From Minisyncoccota bacterium (lineage in GTDB: Bacteria; Patescibacteriota; Minisyncoccia; Phycocordibacterales; UBA6899), in NCBI GenBank assembly GCA_035583355.1, contig DATEZQ010000001.1, positions 10,566-74,565 of the forward strand: a DNA stretch of 64,000 bases, read 5' to 3'. Positions 3,249 through 53,005 of the stretch are shown piece by piece. Numbering within the stretch: the stretch's first letter is position 1; every line of letters begins with the position of its first letter. Position numbers and translations under genes: made by a program. Under the pieces are notes generated by a model. The model searched no databases. It had not been told where the DNA came from and was given only the letters and a program-made list of their open reading frames with translations.

Positions 3249-3316
3249 CAGGAAATTATAGCATAAATTGCATATGCACTACTTACCACTTTCCACTTTC
3301 TTGCTATAATAAAGGC

Positions 3317-11472: not shown

Positions 11473-11541
11473 TACATTCTGCCCGCCGAAAGGCAGGCAG
11501 GATTTATTTTTATTACGTATTATATTTGATATAATTATTCC

Positions 11542-15219: not shown

Positions 15220-15373
15220 GGTGAGTGTGGAGGCTGAACATCACGAGTAATATGCGCGAAATAGTCTGCTCAATAGTGAGCAATTATTCATGAAATATTT
15301 CTTGCAAAATGCTATGCAGGTTTTTTGATGAAATTTTTTTTCACTATCAAAAATATGGCTAACGCTCTGTGTT

Positions 15374-15469
15374 GTGGGGAAAGTGGGACTGTGGATAACT
15401 TTATTGTTGCATAATGGGGGAGAGTGGGATAAAATGGGAACATGTGGGAGAAAGTGGGAAACTTGAGGA
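15374..15469 (+). promoter_or_regulatory. MraZ-box-like direct repeat array upstream of mraZ
   Basis: GTGGGG/GTGGGA/GTGGAT at 15374-15396. Then GTGGGA, ATGGGA, GTGGGA, GTGGGA, TGAGGA at exact 10-bp spacing (15424, 15434, 15444, 15454, 15464). MraZ is known to bind GTGGG-type direct repeats in its own promoter. Confidence 0.6.
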
Positions 15470-17126: not shown

Positions 17127-17468
17127 ATGCAAACACTCTACGCAAAAGCAAATGTAATGAACTCTTGGTACGCACAGAACGCACGTACTGTTTTCACTGT
17201 GATGCTCGCAATTCTTATTGCTAGCTTTGCTTCGTACATGTTTTTCATGGTTTCTTCATTGTCTTCTGGGGTCGCATATCAGAAGGTGCGTCGTGAGATT
17301 GCAAATACTGAATCACGCATTGCAAACCTTGAGGCTGAGCGTATTGCACGCATGAAAGCAGTTGATCTTGCATTTGCAAAGGATCGTGGCTTTGTTGAGG
17401 TTTCGCCTACTCGATATATTGCTTCTGCGGCAGCAACTGAGAAATTTACAATGCGTGACGCGCGCTAA
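17127..17468 (+). CDS. FtsL-like cell division protein (small bitopic membrane protein with coiled coil)
   Basis: Sits between rsmH and ftsI. Has one TM plus a leucine-zipper-like helix. Confidence 0.5.
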   Translation: MQTLYAKANVMNSWYAQNARTVFTVMLAILIASFASYMFFMVSSLSSGVAYQKVRREIANTESRIANLEAERIARMKAVDLAFAKDRGFVEVSPTRYIASAAATEKFTMRDAR

Positions 17469-26225: not shown

Positions 26226-26329
26226 AAAAAGAAGATAAGACTTAGGCTTTGCTTAAGTATAATGCATGATAGGCGCGAGGGGGAGGGGATAGCAATACAA
26301 AAAACGAGGCTGCTATGCCTCGTTTCACT

Positions 26330-29867: not shown

Positions 29868-29920
29868 ACACTATAGTATAGCATAGGTGGAGAAGGATAG
29901 TGGGAGAGGGGGATTCAAGG

Positions 29921-30217
29921 AAGATGCTAGAGAGTGATACGCAGAGATATCTCACGAGCTTTGCTCGCGCACCCTAAAGGGGCCCGCACGGCCAGGCTCC
30001 TCGATTTCATTACATGAACGGTACACCTTTTGGACCTTTTGTATCGAAGACTCACAAAAGTCCTCAAAAGGTCTTGCTCTCTCGCTCCCATAAGAATGGG
30101 ACCCATGAGCAAGAGCTCACCCACGGTTCTCGACGGAACCTCTTCGAGGTTCCTGCTTTCCTCCACGGGAGAGGTGTCCCTCTCCCGACCCCTTCTCCGT
30201 TCGATTCTCTGTAGGGA
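29921..30217. ncRNA. candidate structured RNA/repeat element R1, paired with R2 at 52722-52884; strand not determinable
   Basis: Aligns to the reverse complement of 52722-52884 with conserved blocks and compensatory changes: GGAACCTC-TTCG-GAGGTTCC here vs GGAG-cctacaaga-CTCC there. Other shared helices are cgggagagg-tgtc-cctctcccg and the GCTTTGC helix, here carrying a ~170-nt insertion. The termini CAGAGA...TCTCTGTAGGGA copy the T-stem and acceptor of the adjacent tRNA-Glu. Confidence 0.4.
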
Positions 30218-30269
30218 TTCACAAAATAGAAAAACCTCCCAAGCTTTGCTTGAGAGGTTTTTCATTTTG
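30218..30269. terminator. bidirectional terminator at the centre of a ~45-bp-arm inverted repeat that includes the tRNA-Glu 3' end
   Basis: aaaaacctcccaagc-tttg-cttgagaggttttt. The arms extend outward to gttcgattctctgtaggg on both sides. Confidence 0.65.
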
Positions 30270-30341
30270 TGACCCTACAGAGAATCGAACTCTGATTTAA
30301 GGCTTGAGAAGCCTCCGTCCTAACCGTTAGACGATAGGGCC
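30270..30341 (-). tRNA. tRNA-Glu (anticodon CUC)
   Basis: Manual cloverleaf of GGCCCTATCGTCTAACGGTTAGGACGGAGGCTTCTCAAGCCTTAAATCAGAGTTCGATTCTCTGTAGGGTCA. 7-bp acceptor, D and T arms, anticodon loop TTCTCAA. CCA is not encoded. Confidence 0.8.
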
Positions 30342-30614
30342 AGTCGCTGCGCGAACCAGGCTGGCCATTTTGCTAGAGGAATCGGCCACCGCCGATACAT
30401 TTCCTCGCGCCTTTCTCGCAAAACCTCGTAAGGCTGTCGCAATAGGGCCAATGACATTTCTGAGTTCTTGCTAGTCTGTTTCCTTTCTCACAGAGCCCCG
30501 AAGGGCTTTGCAATAAGGGTTACGGGCAACCACAATTCAGCAGAAAAGTGATCAGCTCGTTCGAATATCATAGCAGATTATTCAAGTTTGTAAAGTGCTA
30601 AAAGGGGTGTAGTA

Positions 30615-34010: not shown

Positions 34011-34583
34011 ATGGTTATTTTCCTTGATTGTGATTGGACCATTTTCGATGCGCAACGCTTTATTGACTACATGAATGCGCATGAAAATGATATTACTGCT
34101 CTTTTGGAGAAAGATCCTCAGGCGCCACTCGCCTCATGGCTTTATGCTGATGTTGTTGATTTTTGCATTGCAGCACGGGGGAAGGGGTACAAGATAGTCA
34201 TTCTTTCAATGGCGAGGAATATTGAGGGGCAGATCGCAAAAATTCGAGCGACGGGCATTGCGGCATATGTTGACGACATTGTTGTAGTACCCGGGGAGAA
34301 AAGTACTGCTGCGGGGGATTGGCTAAAGGAACACAATGAGCGACCCAATGGTCACTACTTTATTGACGATGCACCGCTTTTCCTTAACGATATGAAGCGT
34401 ACGCACCCAGGCATCTGGTGTATTCGCATGGAGCGCACTGCGCTACTTCCGTCCCAAGAATCCATCGCCGCCGTCGATCTCTCTGATCGAACCATAACGA
34501 GCCTCGATGAGCTAAGGGGAATCTTGGGACTAGAAGTCTACGAGGAAGAAACTGCAGAGCATCAAAGTCCTCCGCTTGCGTAG
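34011..34583 (+). CDS. HAD-superfamily hydrolase-like protein
   Basis: N-terminal DCDWT (DxDxT motif I) and a Rossmannoid pattern. Confidence 0.5.
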   Translation: MVIFLDCDWTIFDAQRFIDYMNAHENDITALLEKDPQAPLASWLYADVVDFCIAARGKGYKIVILSMARNIEGQIAKIRATGIAAYVDDIVVVPGEKSTAAGDWLKEHNERPNGHYFIDDAPLFLNDMKRTHPGIWCIRMERTALLPSQESIAAVDLSDRTITSLDELRGILGLEVYEEETAEHQSPPLA

Positions 34584-34706
34584 CAAGCTGTCACGCGCTA
34601 CACATAAATTTAGGTTGATATAATCCACCTCGTTTACATTACCCATAGTGGGGGCGACGGAATTCTCTCCGTCGCCAACTAACGCCGTGAGGCGGACTTG
34701 TGGTTG

Positions 34707-34766
34707 CTTTTCACTACTTTAAAAATACCCAAGCTTTGCTTGGGTATTTTTAAAGTAGTGAAAAGC
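34707..34766. repeat. 60-nt perfect hairpin (28-bp stem, TTTG loop) inside a hairpin-rich ~350-nt intergenic region
   Basis: cttttcactactttaaaaatacccaagc-tttg-cttgggtatttttaaagtagtgaaaag. Further stems at ~34780-34800, 34828-34852 and 34903-34927. Confidence 0.9.
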
Positions 34767-34993
34767 CCGTGCTTGCGGACACGGACTTCTCGGTAAGCCG
34801 TCAAGCATTAAGCGCGCATCGTTTCATAAGGACCGTGAAGAACCTTATGGCGTATGTGTGCTCGCAGCCACGAGCGGTCTATGCTTATAATATAGCATAT
34901 TTTAAAGAAAAGTGGAGTGCCTGAGCACTCCACTGTGGATAACTGATTTAGTCAACTTTTAGGGCCAAAAACTTTCCGTCTCATCTCATGGCG

Positions 34994-35437
34994 CTACACG
35001 TGCCGTTTGCGACCCAGTCCTTGAGCCTTGCGTAGCTCGCGAAAGTGCTTGCACGCACGGTTGTAGGCGGTCGTCATGATGCGTCCATCGACCTCGACTT
35101 CCTTCGGTTTCGGAGTCTCTCCGACCCAGCGCACATTCTGAAGAACGGTACGATGACCCTTCGGCATGAAGGCCACCTCGGTATTCTTGTTGATGGTGAA
35201 GATGATGCCGAGCGGATGTGCACGTACGAGCTGGATAGGGTCGCGGAGTCTCTGCTGTTCGATCCGCATGTGACTGAGCGCAGAACCGACTTTGCTTTTG
35301 AGTTCATGCTCGTCGATGCCCACAGGGACCTCGAGCTCTTTGATCACCAGTGCGAACGCCTCGTGAAAGCCGAACTGATGGAGGAGCGCACTGGTTCCGT
35401 CCACATACTTCTTGAGCACTTCTTCGGTGATGGGCAT
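34994..35437 (-). CDS. hypothetical protein (147 aa), second gene of a two-gene module
   Basis: Coding-like composition. No family recognised. Basic C-terminus. Confidence 0.45.
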   Translation of the reverse strand: MPITEEVLKKYVDGTSALLHQFGFHEAFALVIKELEVPVGIDEHELKSKVGSALSHMRIEQQRLRDPIQLVRAHPLGIIFTINKNTEVAFMPKGHRTVLQNVRWVGETPKPKEVEVDGRIMTTAYNRACKHFRELRKAQGLGRKRHV

Positions 35438-36288: not shown

Positions 36289-37092
36289 TTGAAACAGCGG
36301 TCAGATACTATGGAAACGCACATGCAGAATGGAGGAATAATACCGCCTACACCACACCTTGCGCGCGAACGAGAGTCGGCGCAGCTGAAACGATTACAAG
36401 AGGCATATGAACAGGCAATAAGTTGCCAAATGGCTCTTGAACAGAAGATTTCAGACTTGAACGAAACGATTGAGCGATCGGAGCGTAATTTTAGCATTCT
36501 GCAGGTTCAGCTTGATAGCGCACGAAAGAAGATTGCGCGTCAAAATCGATTGCGTGAGGAAGCTGAGGCGCGCTCACTTCGTCATCAATTCATCGATATA
36601 TATAACCTTGAAGGTTTTCGTCATGAGTATAATCGTTTTGTGCGTGAACTTGCGCGTGGAATGTGGCGCTCTGGTACAATCGTCTATTTTGATCTCGATG
36701 GTTTCAAGCTTGTGAATGATCTTCTTAGTCACGATGTGGGTAATGAAATCCTTATTGCCTTTGGGAAATGTCTTACTGATGCGAGCCGACCTGAAGATGT
36801 CGCAGCATGTTTGCATGGTGATGAGTTTGCACTCATACTTCCAAATGCTGAACGTAAGGATGCAGAAGCCGTTATGGATCGTATCCATCGTGCAGCGGCG
36901 AATATCAACGCAGGGGAGCTTGATTACAAGCATATCTTTGCGGAACTTGGTAGAGATCAACTCGTTGCATTTTCATCCGGATATTACACTATTCAGCGGG
37001 AAGATCCCGTGCTCTCTCCAGAAGAAGTGCTTGCACAGGCAGAATCAATGATTCCAAAGTTTTTTGAAAAGCGTACGGCGAGAATACGATAA
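36289..37092 (+). CDS. GGDEF-domain protein with degenerate HGDEF motif, N-terminal coiled coil; paralog A
   Basis: FDLDGFKLVNDLLSHDVGNEIL and CLHGDEFALIL. It is 80-90% nt-identical in blocks to the gene at 37274. Confidence 0.7.
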   Translation: MKQRSDTMETHMQNGGIIPPTPHLARERESAQLKRLQEAYEQAISCQMALEQKISDLNETIERSERNFSILQVQLDSARKKIARQNRLREEAEARSLRHQFIDIYNLEGFRHEYNRFVRELARGMWRSGTIVYFDLDGFKLVNDLLSHDVGNEILIAFGKCLTDASRPEDVAACLHGDEFALILPNAERKDAEAVMDRIHRAAANINAGELDYKHIFAELGRDQLVAFSSGYYTIQREDPVLSPEEVLAQAESMIPKFFEKRTARIR

Positions 37093-37273: not shown

Positions 37274-38056
37274 ATGGCCACGAAGCTACGCATCACACCA
37301 GACGAGAAAACTGCTTTACGGCGTGCTCTCGAAGAGGAGGCCGCTGCGCACAAAGAGACACAAGCAGCGCATGAGCGATCAATCGAACGTCAAATGGCGC
37401 TTGAGCGACAGCTCGCAGATCTACGCGAAACGTTTATGGAGACGGAGCGCAGTTTTAGTATTATGCAGATTCAGCTTGATAGTGCCAAGAAGAAGATTGC
37501 TCGTCTTAGTAAATTACGCAGAGAGGCAGAAGCACGTTCCTTGAGGCATCAATTCATAGATATATACAACCTTGAAGGTTTTCGTCATGAATATAATCGT
37601 TTTGTGCGTGAACTTGCGCGTGGTATTTGGAACTCCGGTACTATAGTCTATTTCGACCTCGATGGATTTAAGCTAGTGAATGATCTTTTGAGTCACGATG
37701 TGGGTAATGAGATTCTCATTGCATTTGGAGAGTGTCTGCATAATGAAAGTCGACCCGAAGATATATCTGCCTGTCTGCATGGGGATGAGTTTGCATTGAT
37801 TCTCCCTGACGCAGATCGCAAGGATGCCGAATCCATCATGGCGCGCATTCATAAGGCTGCTGCGGGTATTAATGCCGGTGATATGGACTACAAACATATC
37901 TTTGCCGAGCTCGGGAGGACTCAGCTTGTCGAGTTCTCTTCGGGATATTTTACGATGCAGCGTGGTGACCCTATCCTCTCTGCAGAGGAAGCACTAATGA
38001 AAGCTGAGGCTACGATTCCTAAGTTTTTCAATCGCCGAAAGCCGAGAAATAAGTAG
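37274..38056 (+). CDS. GGDEF-domain protein with degenerate HGDEF motif; paralog B
   Basis: Same motifs as paralog A. Tandem duplicate. Confidence 0.7.
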   Translation: MATKLRITPDEKTALRRALEEEAAAHKETQAAHERSIERQMALERQLADLRETFMETERSFSIMQIQLDSAKKKIARLSKLRREAEARSLRHQFIDIYNLEGFRHEYNRFVRELARGIWNSGTIVYFDLDGFKLVNDLLSHDVGNEILIAFGECLHNESRPEDISACLHGDEFALILPDADRKDAESIMARIHKAAAGINAGDMDYKHIFAELGRTQLVEFSSGYFTMQRGDPILSAEEALMKAEATIPKFFNRRKPRNK

Positions 38057-38115
38057 AAAAAGTAGCCCATTTAGGGCTACTTTTTTGAATTTTTGGGATG
38101 GTATAATAAATACAT

Positions 38116-46003: not shown

Positions 46004-46039
46004 ACTGTGGATAACGCGCGTTGTCCACAATGTGGTTAA
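46004..46039. promoter_or_regulatory. cluster of three DnaA-box-like 9-mers upstream of dnaB
   Basis: TGTGGATAA (perfect complement of TTATCCACA) at 46006-46014, TTGTCCACA at 46021-46029 and TGTGGTTAA at 46031-46039. Confidence 0.5.
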
Positions 46040-47966: not shown

Positions 47967-48010
47967 ATCCACAGACTTAAGTAGACGGCCGTCTACTTAA
48001 GTCTGTGGAT
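47967..48010. repeat. 44-nt perfect palindrome (22-bp arms)
   Basis: atccacagacttaagtagacgg|ccgtctacttaagtctgtggat. Confidence 0.9.
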
Positions 48011-52274: not shown

Positions 52275-52413
52275 AAGTATATTCTAACATGGGGAAGAAA
52301 GTCGAAAGTAAAAAATGAATAATTATACAAGAGTCTAGTAATCTTATTATATTTGTGATATAACAGGACAGTTCAAATAGAATTTAAAGGCAGGAACTGC
52401 TTAGATAATTGAA

Positions 52414-52596
52414 TATTACGGGATCGTCTAAAGGTAAGAATAGCCCTATGGGCACCAGGTATTCTTGCCCGATAGAGAGTCGCCACCGCGACCCTGATCA
52501 ACTCACGCCTTCGCAGGCTCAGTCGTTCACGGGTAGGAAAGAGGCCGGCCTCCGTCCGGCTCTCCGTAAGTATTGAATTGTTTTTAAATATAGTAT
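52414..52596 (+). repeat. partial duplication of the tRNA-Gln 5' region followed by a ~155-nt structured pseudo-tRNA-like segment
   Basis: tattacgggatcgtctaaaggta at 52414-52436 is identical to 52594-52616, the start of the true tRNA. The downstream part contains a T-arm-like GCCGG-CCTCCGT-CCGGC and CTCCGTA. Confidence 0.55.
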
Positions 52597-52667
52597 TACG
52601 GGATCGTCTAAAGGTAGGACAGAGGCCTTTGAAGCCTTTAATCTTGGTTCGATTCCAAGTCCCGTAG
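52597..52667 (+). tRNA. tRNA-Gln (anticodon UUG)
   Basis: Manual cloverleaf of TACGGGATCGTCTAAAGGTAGGACAGAGGCCTTTGAAGCCTTTAATCTTGGTTCGATTCCAAGTCCCGTAG. Anticodon loop CTTTGAA. CCA is not encoded. Confidence 0.8.
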
Positions 52668-52721
52668 CAATGGCCAAAAAGAACGCGAAAGCGTTCTTTT
52701 TGTTTGCCATTGCTAACGGGA
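52668..52721. terminator. bidirectional terminator at the centre of a ~43-bp-arm inverted repeat that includes the tRNA-Gln 3' end
   Basis: aaaaagaacgc-gaaa-gcgttcttttt. The arms extend through agcaatggcc/gccattgct to ttcgattccaagtcccgt on both sides. Confidence 0.65.
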
Positions 52722-52884
52722 CTTGGAATCGAACGGAGAGGGGTCGGGAGAGGAATACCTCTCCTGTGCAGGAAAGCAGGAGTCTTGTAGGCTCCGTCGA
52801 GAACCGTGGGTTCTTGAAGAGCTTTGCTGTGCGAGGCTCCTCTGGAGTGCGCACGCAAAGCGAGTGAGATATCCAAGCCCCATA
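52722..52884. ncRNA. candidate structured RNA/repeat element R2, paralog of 29921-30217
   Basis: Conserved blocks with R1 (see R1). Terminal helix GGGGCTTGG/CCAAGTCCC, or GGGACTTGG/CCAAGCCCC on the other strand. The termini copy the tRNA-Gln T-stem and acceptor. Confidence 0.4.
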
Positions 52885-53005
52885 GCAGTTTGAAGAAATT
52901 TCTGTTTCGGAACACGGCACATCAATGTAACACATTGATTAGTACAATTTTTACACTATGTGATACTATATGTGTATTTATGTAACTAATAATGAATTAA
53001 GTAAT

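Follow-up and report, generated by a model that had tools for sequence, protein, structure and literature searches.

A probable unannotated small structured RNA gene between two convergent genes of a Minisyncoccota bacterium

In the 64-kb stretch of DNA analysed here (64,000 nucleotides, referred to as the window), a HAD-like gene on the plus strand and an orphan gene for a 147-aa protein on the minus strand converge on a gap that contains the features listed in Table 1. The HAD-like protein carries the source name of a Candidatus Paceibacterota (CPR) MAG. VJ579_00205 and VJ579_00210, the locus tags that NCBI gives to the flanking genes, are one numbering step apart, and we therefore read the gap as lacking any NCBI annotation. 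A 266-nt stretch of the gap scored far above shuffled sequences in folding on both strands (z = -9.5 and -9.8). The original prediction had described the gap as dense in hairpins, and all of the stems it named were present: the 28-bp stem with a TTTG loop is the same structure as the 29-nt arms with a 3-nt loop of terminator T, CATAAGG/CCTTATG is hairpin H4, TATGCT/AGCATA is palindrome H2, AGTGGAGTGC-CTGA-GCACTCCACT is the hairpin of H1, and the perfect ACTGTGGATAAC box is the DnaA-box-like site. The CCGTG/CACGG stem was found as well, but as part of the longer 13-bp stem H5. Farther along the window lie two tandem paralogous GGDEF-domain genes (36289-37092 and 37274-38056) that are ~72% identical over 300 nt; the relatives carry one or two copies of this gene.

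Table 1. Features of the gap between the HAD-like gene and the 147-aa gene, in window coordinates.
Feature	Position	Strand	Description
HAD-like gene	34011-34583	+	
Extended -10-like motif	34616-34624	+	TGATATAAT; 33 nt past the HAD stop codon
Variable GC-hairpin module	34626-34700	+	GGCGACGGA/TCCGTCGCC and CGCC-GTGA-GGCG
Terminator T (putative)	34706-34766	both	perfect 29-bp palindrome: A-tract, GC core ACCCAAGC/GCTTGGGT, T-tract
Proposed small RNA	34720-34882	-	~163 nt; predicted start near A34882 or A34880, predicted end at the U-tract of T; contains P1, H3, H4 and H5
Ultra-conserved block	34757-34957	-	~200 nt; holds the RNA body, promoter region, H1, DnaA-box-like site and TTGAC; alignments A1, A2 and A6
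H5	34760-34791	-	13-bp stem GAGAAGUCCGUGU/GCACGGGCUUUUC, loop CCGCAA
H4	34825-34849	-	7-bp stem CAUAAGG/CCUUAUG (plus-strand notation), invariant 11-nt loop
H3	34860-34875	-	candidate hairpin GCUCG-UGGCUG-CGAGC, seen in the sequence only; invariant
H2	34880-34899	-	palindrome TATGCT-N8-AGCATA, encloses the -10 motif
Extended -10 promoter motif	34889-34897	-	TGCTATATT (TGnTATATT); invariant in 7/7 lineages
H1	34904-34934	-	10-bp GC-rich hairpin (34911-34934) and UUUUCUUU; from a terminator scan
DnaA-box-like operator (putative)	34932-34943	-	GTTATCCACAGT (perfect TTATCCACA), also given as ACTGTGGATAAC
Orphan 147-aa gene	34994-35437	-	C-terminus basic; directly upstream of the RNA in every lineage, same strand

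Syntenic contigs from six other lineages (L015, L016/L017, L018, L019/L020, L028, and L034) allowed the RNA block to be compared across seven distinct sequences, six of which are nearly identical. The identity of the block to the window at the nucleotide level was 98, 98, 98, 97, and 94% in the five closer lineages and 80% in L028. In contrast, the neighbouring coding sequences of the five closer lineages reached 58-85% DNA identity, and those of L028 40-71%, with values of 76-83 and 71% for pyruvate kinase (PK), 76-83 and 66% for YqeY, 58-76 and 40% for the 147-aa gene, and, in the five closer lineages, 64-72% for the HAD-like gene. At the protein level the flanking genes of the same genomes were 48-84% identical, and L034 combines a 147-aa protein of only 48% identity with an essentially unchanged block. 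The tRNA-Glu gene served as a yardstick (73/73 positions identical in L018 and L019, 53/73 in L028), and by this measure the block is constrained like a tRNA. Across ~57 nt of the 5' half of the RNA, a single change was found in L028. The order of the 147-aa gene followed by the RNA was kept in 7/7 lineages. A lack of homolog conservation, which the original prediction had named as an outcome that would speak against it, was thus not what we observed, as the block is conserved in six other lineages. No reading frame is conserved in the block: the ORFs of 41-51 aa are broken by indels in L028, where other ORFs arise. A small protein-coding gene was rejected on these grounds, the small ORFs not being kept across the relatives.

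The substitutions that do occur across the lineages keep four stems paired, and the G·U wobbles they create arise only when the block is read from the minus strand. For H5, the minus sense pairs 91/91 alignment cells, including 21 as G·U, compared to 70/91 for the plus sense, and the changes of this stem across lineages include GC to AU, UA to UG, and UG to UA. One pair of H4 varies from AU to UA to GC. The changes in H1 (UA to AU, AU to GU, and CG to UG) are all paired in the minus sense, two of them being broken in the plus sense. H2 carries two changes in L028 with pairing retained as G·U in the minus sense; its role is ambiguous, since both of these changes also sit at unconstrained promoter positions. 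Read from the minus strand, every pair of H1 and of H2 is intact (100%); the plus-strand reading gives A·C mismatches in both. Over alignment A6 as a whole, 95.7% of the cells are paired and seven pairs changed on both sides, a level that none of 500 shuffles attained, while slid controls gave 37-50% pairing. Substitutions that yield G·U in one reading and A·C in the opposite one therefore point to an RNA rather than a DNA site, with the RNA and the 147-aa gene sharing one orientation. Thus, at the level of sequence comparison, the covarying pairs and the strand-specific wobble show a structured RNA read from the minus strand. Two counter-examples were noted: the plus sense gives the better pairing for another possible central stem, GCGCGCAUCG/CGUAUGUGUGC, and it is the only sense in which terminator T of L016 is intact. 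An RNA from the plus strand was rejected, with no fitting promoter or terminator and with A·C mismatches in H1, H2, and H5. The central junction (P1, H3, and a long irregular stem) is a candidate fold only, because six of the seven sequences are nearly identical.

The two most conspicuous hairpins of the gap, T and H1, each lie downstream of a convergent gene. The arms of T (34706-34734 and 34738-34766) are 100% complementary around their 3-nt loop and form the largest inverted repeat in the window, with the GC core flanked by A5 and T5. A hairpin occupies this position in L015, L016, L018, L019, and L028, with stems of 15-29 bp (the L034 contig ends inside it); those of L019 and L028 differ in sequence and are shorter (15-16 bp), whereas the arms of L015, L016, and L018 covary through compensatory changes. 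The structure is hence kept over the sequence, as in an intrinsic terminator, and T is best read as a predicted two-way terminator that would serve both the HAD-like gene on the plus strand and the RNA on the minus strand. T resembles known bidirectional intrinsic terminators between convergent genes in having an A-tract, a GC-rich stem, a T-tract, and a covarying stem between converging units; it differs from them in that its stem is a perfect 29 bp in four lineages and that the extension is an inverted copy of the conserved 3' tail of the RNA. The loop of T was also seen to flip, being TTT in the window and L018 and AAA in L015 and L016, while the arms stay a perfect palindrome, and in L015 both arms carry one extra base at matching places. 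From the sequences, the loop flip looks like inversion of the hairpin apex or homogenisation of the arms, not like independent point changes. As for H1, the terminator scan reported 6/10 GC pairs followed by TTTTCTTT on the minus strand, and H1 is best read as the putative intrinsic terminator of the 147-aa gene; the sequence of H1 is itself conserved, which is atypical for an intrinsic terminator. The proposal that the locus encodes a structured non-coding RNA, rather than plain terminators, is consequently borne out for 34757-34957 by conservation, covariation, and strand-specific G·U pairs, but it does not extend to these two hairpins.

The start and the 3' end of the RNA were inferred from motifs, namely the extended -10 and the terminator, and are to be taken as predicted positions. 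The motif TGNTATAWT occurs 10 times in the window compared to 4.15 expected, with five copies 7-61 nt upstream of ORF starts, four of these five being of the leaderless type. In the copies of TGnTATAAT at 3255-3263, 3302-3310, 11527-11535, and 38099-38107, the last base is 7-9 nt away from the start codon of the ORF that follows, a spacing that suggests that leaderless mRNAs may be common in this organism. Upstream of the proposed promoter, the core TTATCCACAGT of the DnaA-box-like site is kept in 7/7 lineages and the full 12-mer is exact in six, L028 having C at the first position. The window has only two further copies of the 12-mer GTTATCCACAGT, one preceding mraZ (15387-15398) and the other preceding dnaB (46004-46015), where it belongs to a cluster of three boxes; like the copy at the RNA locus, both are on the minus strand and fall between long ORFs. 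The ACTGTGGATAAC box is thus a recurring, putative DnaA-box-like operator, and we infer that the RNA would be under the control of this site. The arrangement is similar to that of DnaA-regulated promoters in that a perfect conserved TTATCCACA is placed ~40 bp upstream of the proposed -10 and that the same 12-mers precede dnaB and mraZ; unlike in those systems, this putative site is single and does not mark an origin. Two other observations concern these regions. Next to the mraZ copy, at 15300-15385, (T)CCCAC repeats spaced ~10 nt apart look like candidate MraZ operator repeats. Past the L21 gene, a perfect 44-bp palindrome at 47967-48010 (ATCCACAGACTTAAGTAGACGG/CCGTCTACTTAAGTCTGTGGAT) carries at its ends the ATCCACAG core of the DnaA-box-like motif.

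Taken together in the minus sense, the features suggest the following order. The 147-aa gene ends and the conserved DnaA-box-like site GTTATCCACAGT comes next; H1 with its U-tract would terminate the 147-aa mRNA; the extended -10 TGCTATATT would then start the ~163-nt RNA, the body of which would fold into P1, H3, H4, and H5; and the long hairpin T would stop this RNA as well as the converging HAD-like mRNA. We consider it probable, with a likelihood of roughly 0.6, that the gap holds an unannotated, lineage-restricted gene for a small structured RNA on the minus strand, set between two ordinary intrinsic terminators.

The portion of the gap to the left of T behaves differently from the block. 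Its GC-hairpin module, which includes the GGCGACGGA/TCCGTCGCC hairpin at 34653-34676 (the GGCGACGG hairpin of 34620-34700), is present once in the window and in L016, twice in L015, and not at all in L018 or L019, the count covering the window and these four lineages. No second copy of the module was detected in the window. L016 and L018 share with the window the block TAAATTTAGnTTGATAT at the plus-strand -10-like motif, and TGATATAAT could conceivably drive a short plus-strand RNA consisting of the variable GC-hairpin module and T.

The original prediction had emphasised an apex common to T and the tRNA-Glu terminator, and this apex is real: the exact 15-nt sequence CCCAAGCTTTGCTTG occurs at 30238-30252 and 34728-34742. 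By itself the match is not significant, because shuffled 64-kb sequences already hold ~4 repeated 15-mers (and ~16 repeated 14-mers), so that the chance explanation foreseen at the outset holds for the shared 15-mer. It does not hold for the shorter motif AGCTTTGCT, with exact copies at 17223, 29957, 30242, 34732, and 52820 on the plus strand and 61559 on the minus strand; these six copies compare to 0.77 expected, and none of 100 shuffles reached six. The recurrence reported for this motif was thereby confirmed, although the positions first assigned to it were ~2 nt off and the one at 26259 is inexact (GGCTTTGCT, the apex of another terminator hairpin). The copies at 17223 and 61559 lie inside long ORFs that we read as genes. 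AGCTTTGCT recurs mainly by way of small GC-WWW-GC hairpin apexes in terminators and of a separate element linked to tRNA genes.

The tRNA loci in question are those of tRNA-Glu (minus strand, 29870-30294) and tRNA-Gln (plus strand, 52642-52970), each comprising the tRNA gene and then a terminator. After each terminator comes an inverted copy of the tRNA 3' end (18-24 nt, 92-100% complementary), creating palindromes of ~92-98 nt. T and both tRNA terminators thus share one design, in which the 3' tail of a stable RNA, a terminator core, and the inverted tail make up one long palindrome. Past both tRNA palindromes lies a shared non-coding element of ~250-350 nt (GGGGTCGGGAGAGG...CCGTCGAGAACCGTGGGT...) with no Rfam match; it is conserved beside tRNA-Glu in L018 (690-968) and L019 (1980-2330), with another copy of the terminator palindrome flanking the element in L019. 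Upstream of tRNA-Glu, the 178 bp of 30343-30520 are missing from L001, a contig of a different sample that is 100% identical elsewhere, and this segment holds repeats resembling the tRNA 5' end (GCAATAGGGCC). The 5' part of tRNA-Gln with the 10 nt upstream of it is duplicated 180 nt upstream (52407-52439 and 52587-52619; 33 nt, 88%).

These comparisons bear on the suggestion that the gap holds one copy of a dispersed family of hairpins or miniature inverted repeats with the apex of the tRNA-Glu terminator, a reading that we find extremely improbable. The apex shared with the tRNA-Glu terminator (31 nt at 77% when extended), the over-representation of AGCTTTGCT, and the varying copy number of the left GC-hairpin module among the relatives would all fit such a family. 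Yet the shared 15-mer is expected by chance, the two terminators of L019 are unrelated in sequence, the position is strictly syntenic in seven lineages, and no second copy of the block, the module, or the long stem, nor of any other part, was found across the 64 kb of the window and ~330 kb of contigs from relatives. Still harder to sustain is the view that the gap contains only ordinary terminators and spacer and that the conservation is a sampling artefact of close relatives. Two of the hairpins are indeed terminators by our reading, but the flanking genes of the same genomes, at 58-85% DNA and 48-84% protein identity against 94-98% for the block, already contradict it. A DNA-level element, such as an origin, a dif or partition site, or a dense set of protein-binding sites, is also very improbable. 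The perfect conserved DnaA box, the AT-rich palindrome adjoining it, and the presence of the 12-mer at two other regulatory regions speak for an element of this type, whereas there is one box only, the GC skew is positive across the whole window without a switch, and dnaA is not adjacent, the nearby replication gene being dnaB at a distance of 10 kb; an oriC or dif site was rejected for these reasons. Moreover, G·U pairs on one strand with A·C on the other are a signature of RNA, not of duplex DNA.

A different possibility, that the block is a structured 3' UTR of the 147-aa mRNA or an RNA processed from it, with H1 as internal structure or an attenuator, appears unlikely to us. It would account for the short distance of 2-50 nt that separates the block from the end of the 147-aa reading frame in each lineage, for the polarity that the block shares with this gene, and for H1, the TTATCCACAG site, and TTGAC being as invariant as the RNA body. 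Indeed, conservation as strong as that of the body extends over H1 and the stretch preceding the proposed promoter, which is unexpected for a plain terminator and therefore fits a longer transcript or a 3'-UTR origin. On the other hand, H1 consists of a strong GC hairpin and, after it, UUUUCUUU, the invariant extended -10 lies just downstream of it and belongs to a motif class that marks ORF starts elsewhere in the window, and the RNA is 94-98% identical where the protein gene is 58-76%.

The preferred reading, a separate small RNA gene, raises the matter of which RNA this might be. In the whole window only tRNAs passed the gathering thresholds of Rfam 15, and a search at E ≤ 10 of the locus in the window and in L028 returned only generic hairpin and miRNA-type matches far below threshold; the Rfam scan proposed for the locus thus gave no family match, in line with an unannotated RNA. 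RNase P RNA, minimal or permuted, was rejected: a P4-like hairpin, ACGGCUU-ACCGAG-AAGUCCGU, is broken by the L028 changes, which compensate the competing stem H5 instead, and compared to a P4 of AAGUCCGG/CCGGCUU with a bulged U in a core of 300-400 nt, the RNA is far too short and has no Rfam match. 6S RNA was rejected, with no RF00013 match at E ≤ 10 and a predicted fold of multiple hairpins rather than a ~180-nt rod with a central bubble. A tmRNA was likewise set aside, ARAGORN and the tmRNA models of Rfam having reported none and the 147-aa neighbour not being SmpB by Pfam or NCBIfam. For SRP RNA, we found neither an Rfam match nor the domain IV motif. The RNA is, as predicted from the sequences, a new and unannotated family of a familiar kind that is notable for its degree of conservation. 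Like trans-encoded sRNAs it is ~160 nt long and intergenic, with promoter-like and terminator signals, several stem-loops, and conservation within a clade; unlike them this predicted RNA is conserved as a tRNA is, above all neighbouring genes, a degree seldom seen in regulatory sRNAs. With the housekeeping RNAs (6S, SRP, RNase P, and tmRNA) it shares tRNA-grade constraint and a length in the range of 6S and small SRP RNAs, and, as ssrA follows smpB, it directly follows a gene for a small basic protein; it differs from them in lacking the rod-like shape of 6S, the SRP domain IV motif, and a tRNA-like end.

The neighbouring 147-aa protein gave no match in Pfam or NCBIfam, SmpB and RnpA included, and only four matches among 1.84 billion representative proteins; its AlphaFold2 model was confident and produced no fold match. 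This basic protein is a candidate partner of the RNA, with the qualification that the synteny that links the two is shared by the whole neighbourhood. Our best guess for this lineage-restricted RNA is a housekeeping or regulatory role, perhaps with the orphan 147-aa protein as its partner. Tentatively, it may work as an RNP in such a role, bound to a macromolecular partner that is itself conserved; we propose this because ~57 nt of the 5' half differ only once in L028, and we think that such a role is more likely than that of a simple antisense regulator. A broader proposal, which we offer as doubtful, is that the RNA would form a housekeeping-grade RNP with the 147-aa protein and that the lineage embeds the 3' ends of its stable RNAs (this RNA, tRNA-Glu, and tRNA-Gln) in long terminator palindromes, which may allow a common mechanism to process or protect these ends, such as cleavage of read-through transcripts by RNase III.

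Within the searches as run, the RNA is known from a narrow clade only. No copy was present within ~20 kb in L029-L033, in which PK identity is 69-77% and synteny is lost. A scan of a genome collection with PK gave a best match of 51% identity (Saccharibacteria), with no close genome among those in the collection. Exact-word scans for homologs of the RNA, using a 19-mer in metagenome contigs and a 17-mer and a 19-mer in viral contigs, returned nothing or chance matches in coding regions, and blastn of the locus against phage and plasmid collections gave no match.

The CPR bacteria (Patescibacteria) have tiny genomes with little spare DNA, and to our knowledge almost nothing is known of their non-coding RNAs. 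The finding is modest for now, as it is confined to a narrow clade and the role of the RNA is a guess. Nevertheless, an RNA that evolves as slowly as a tRNA amid diverging neighbours is very likely to be important to the cell. Missing from both Rfam and the NCBI annotation, it now stands as a concrete candidate for CPR genomes, in which "hairpin-dense" spacers can hide genes.
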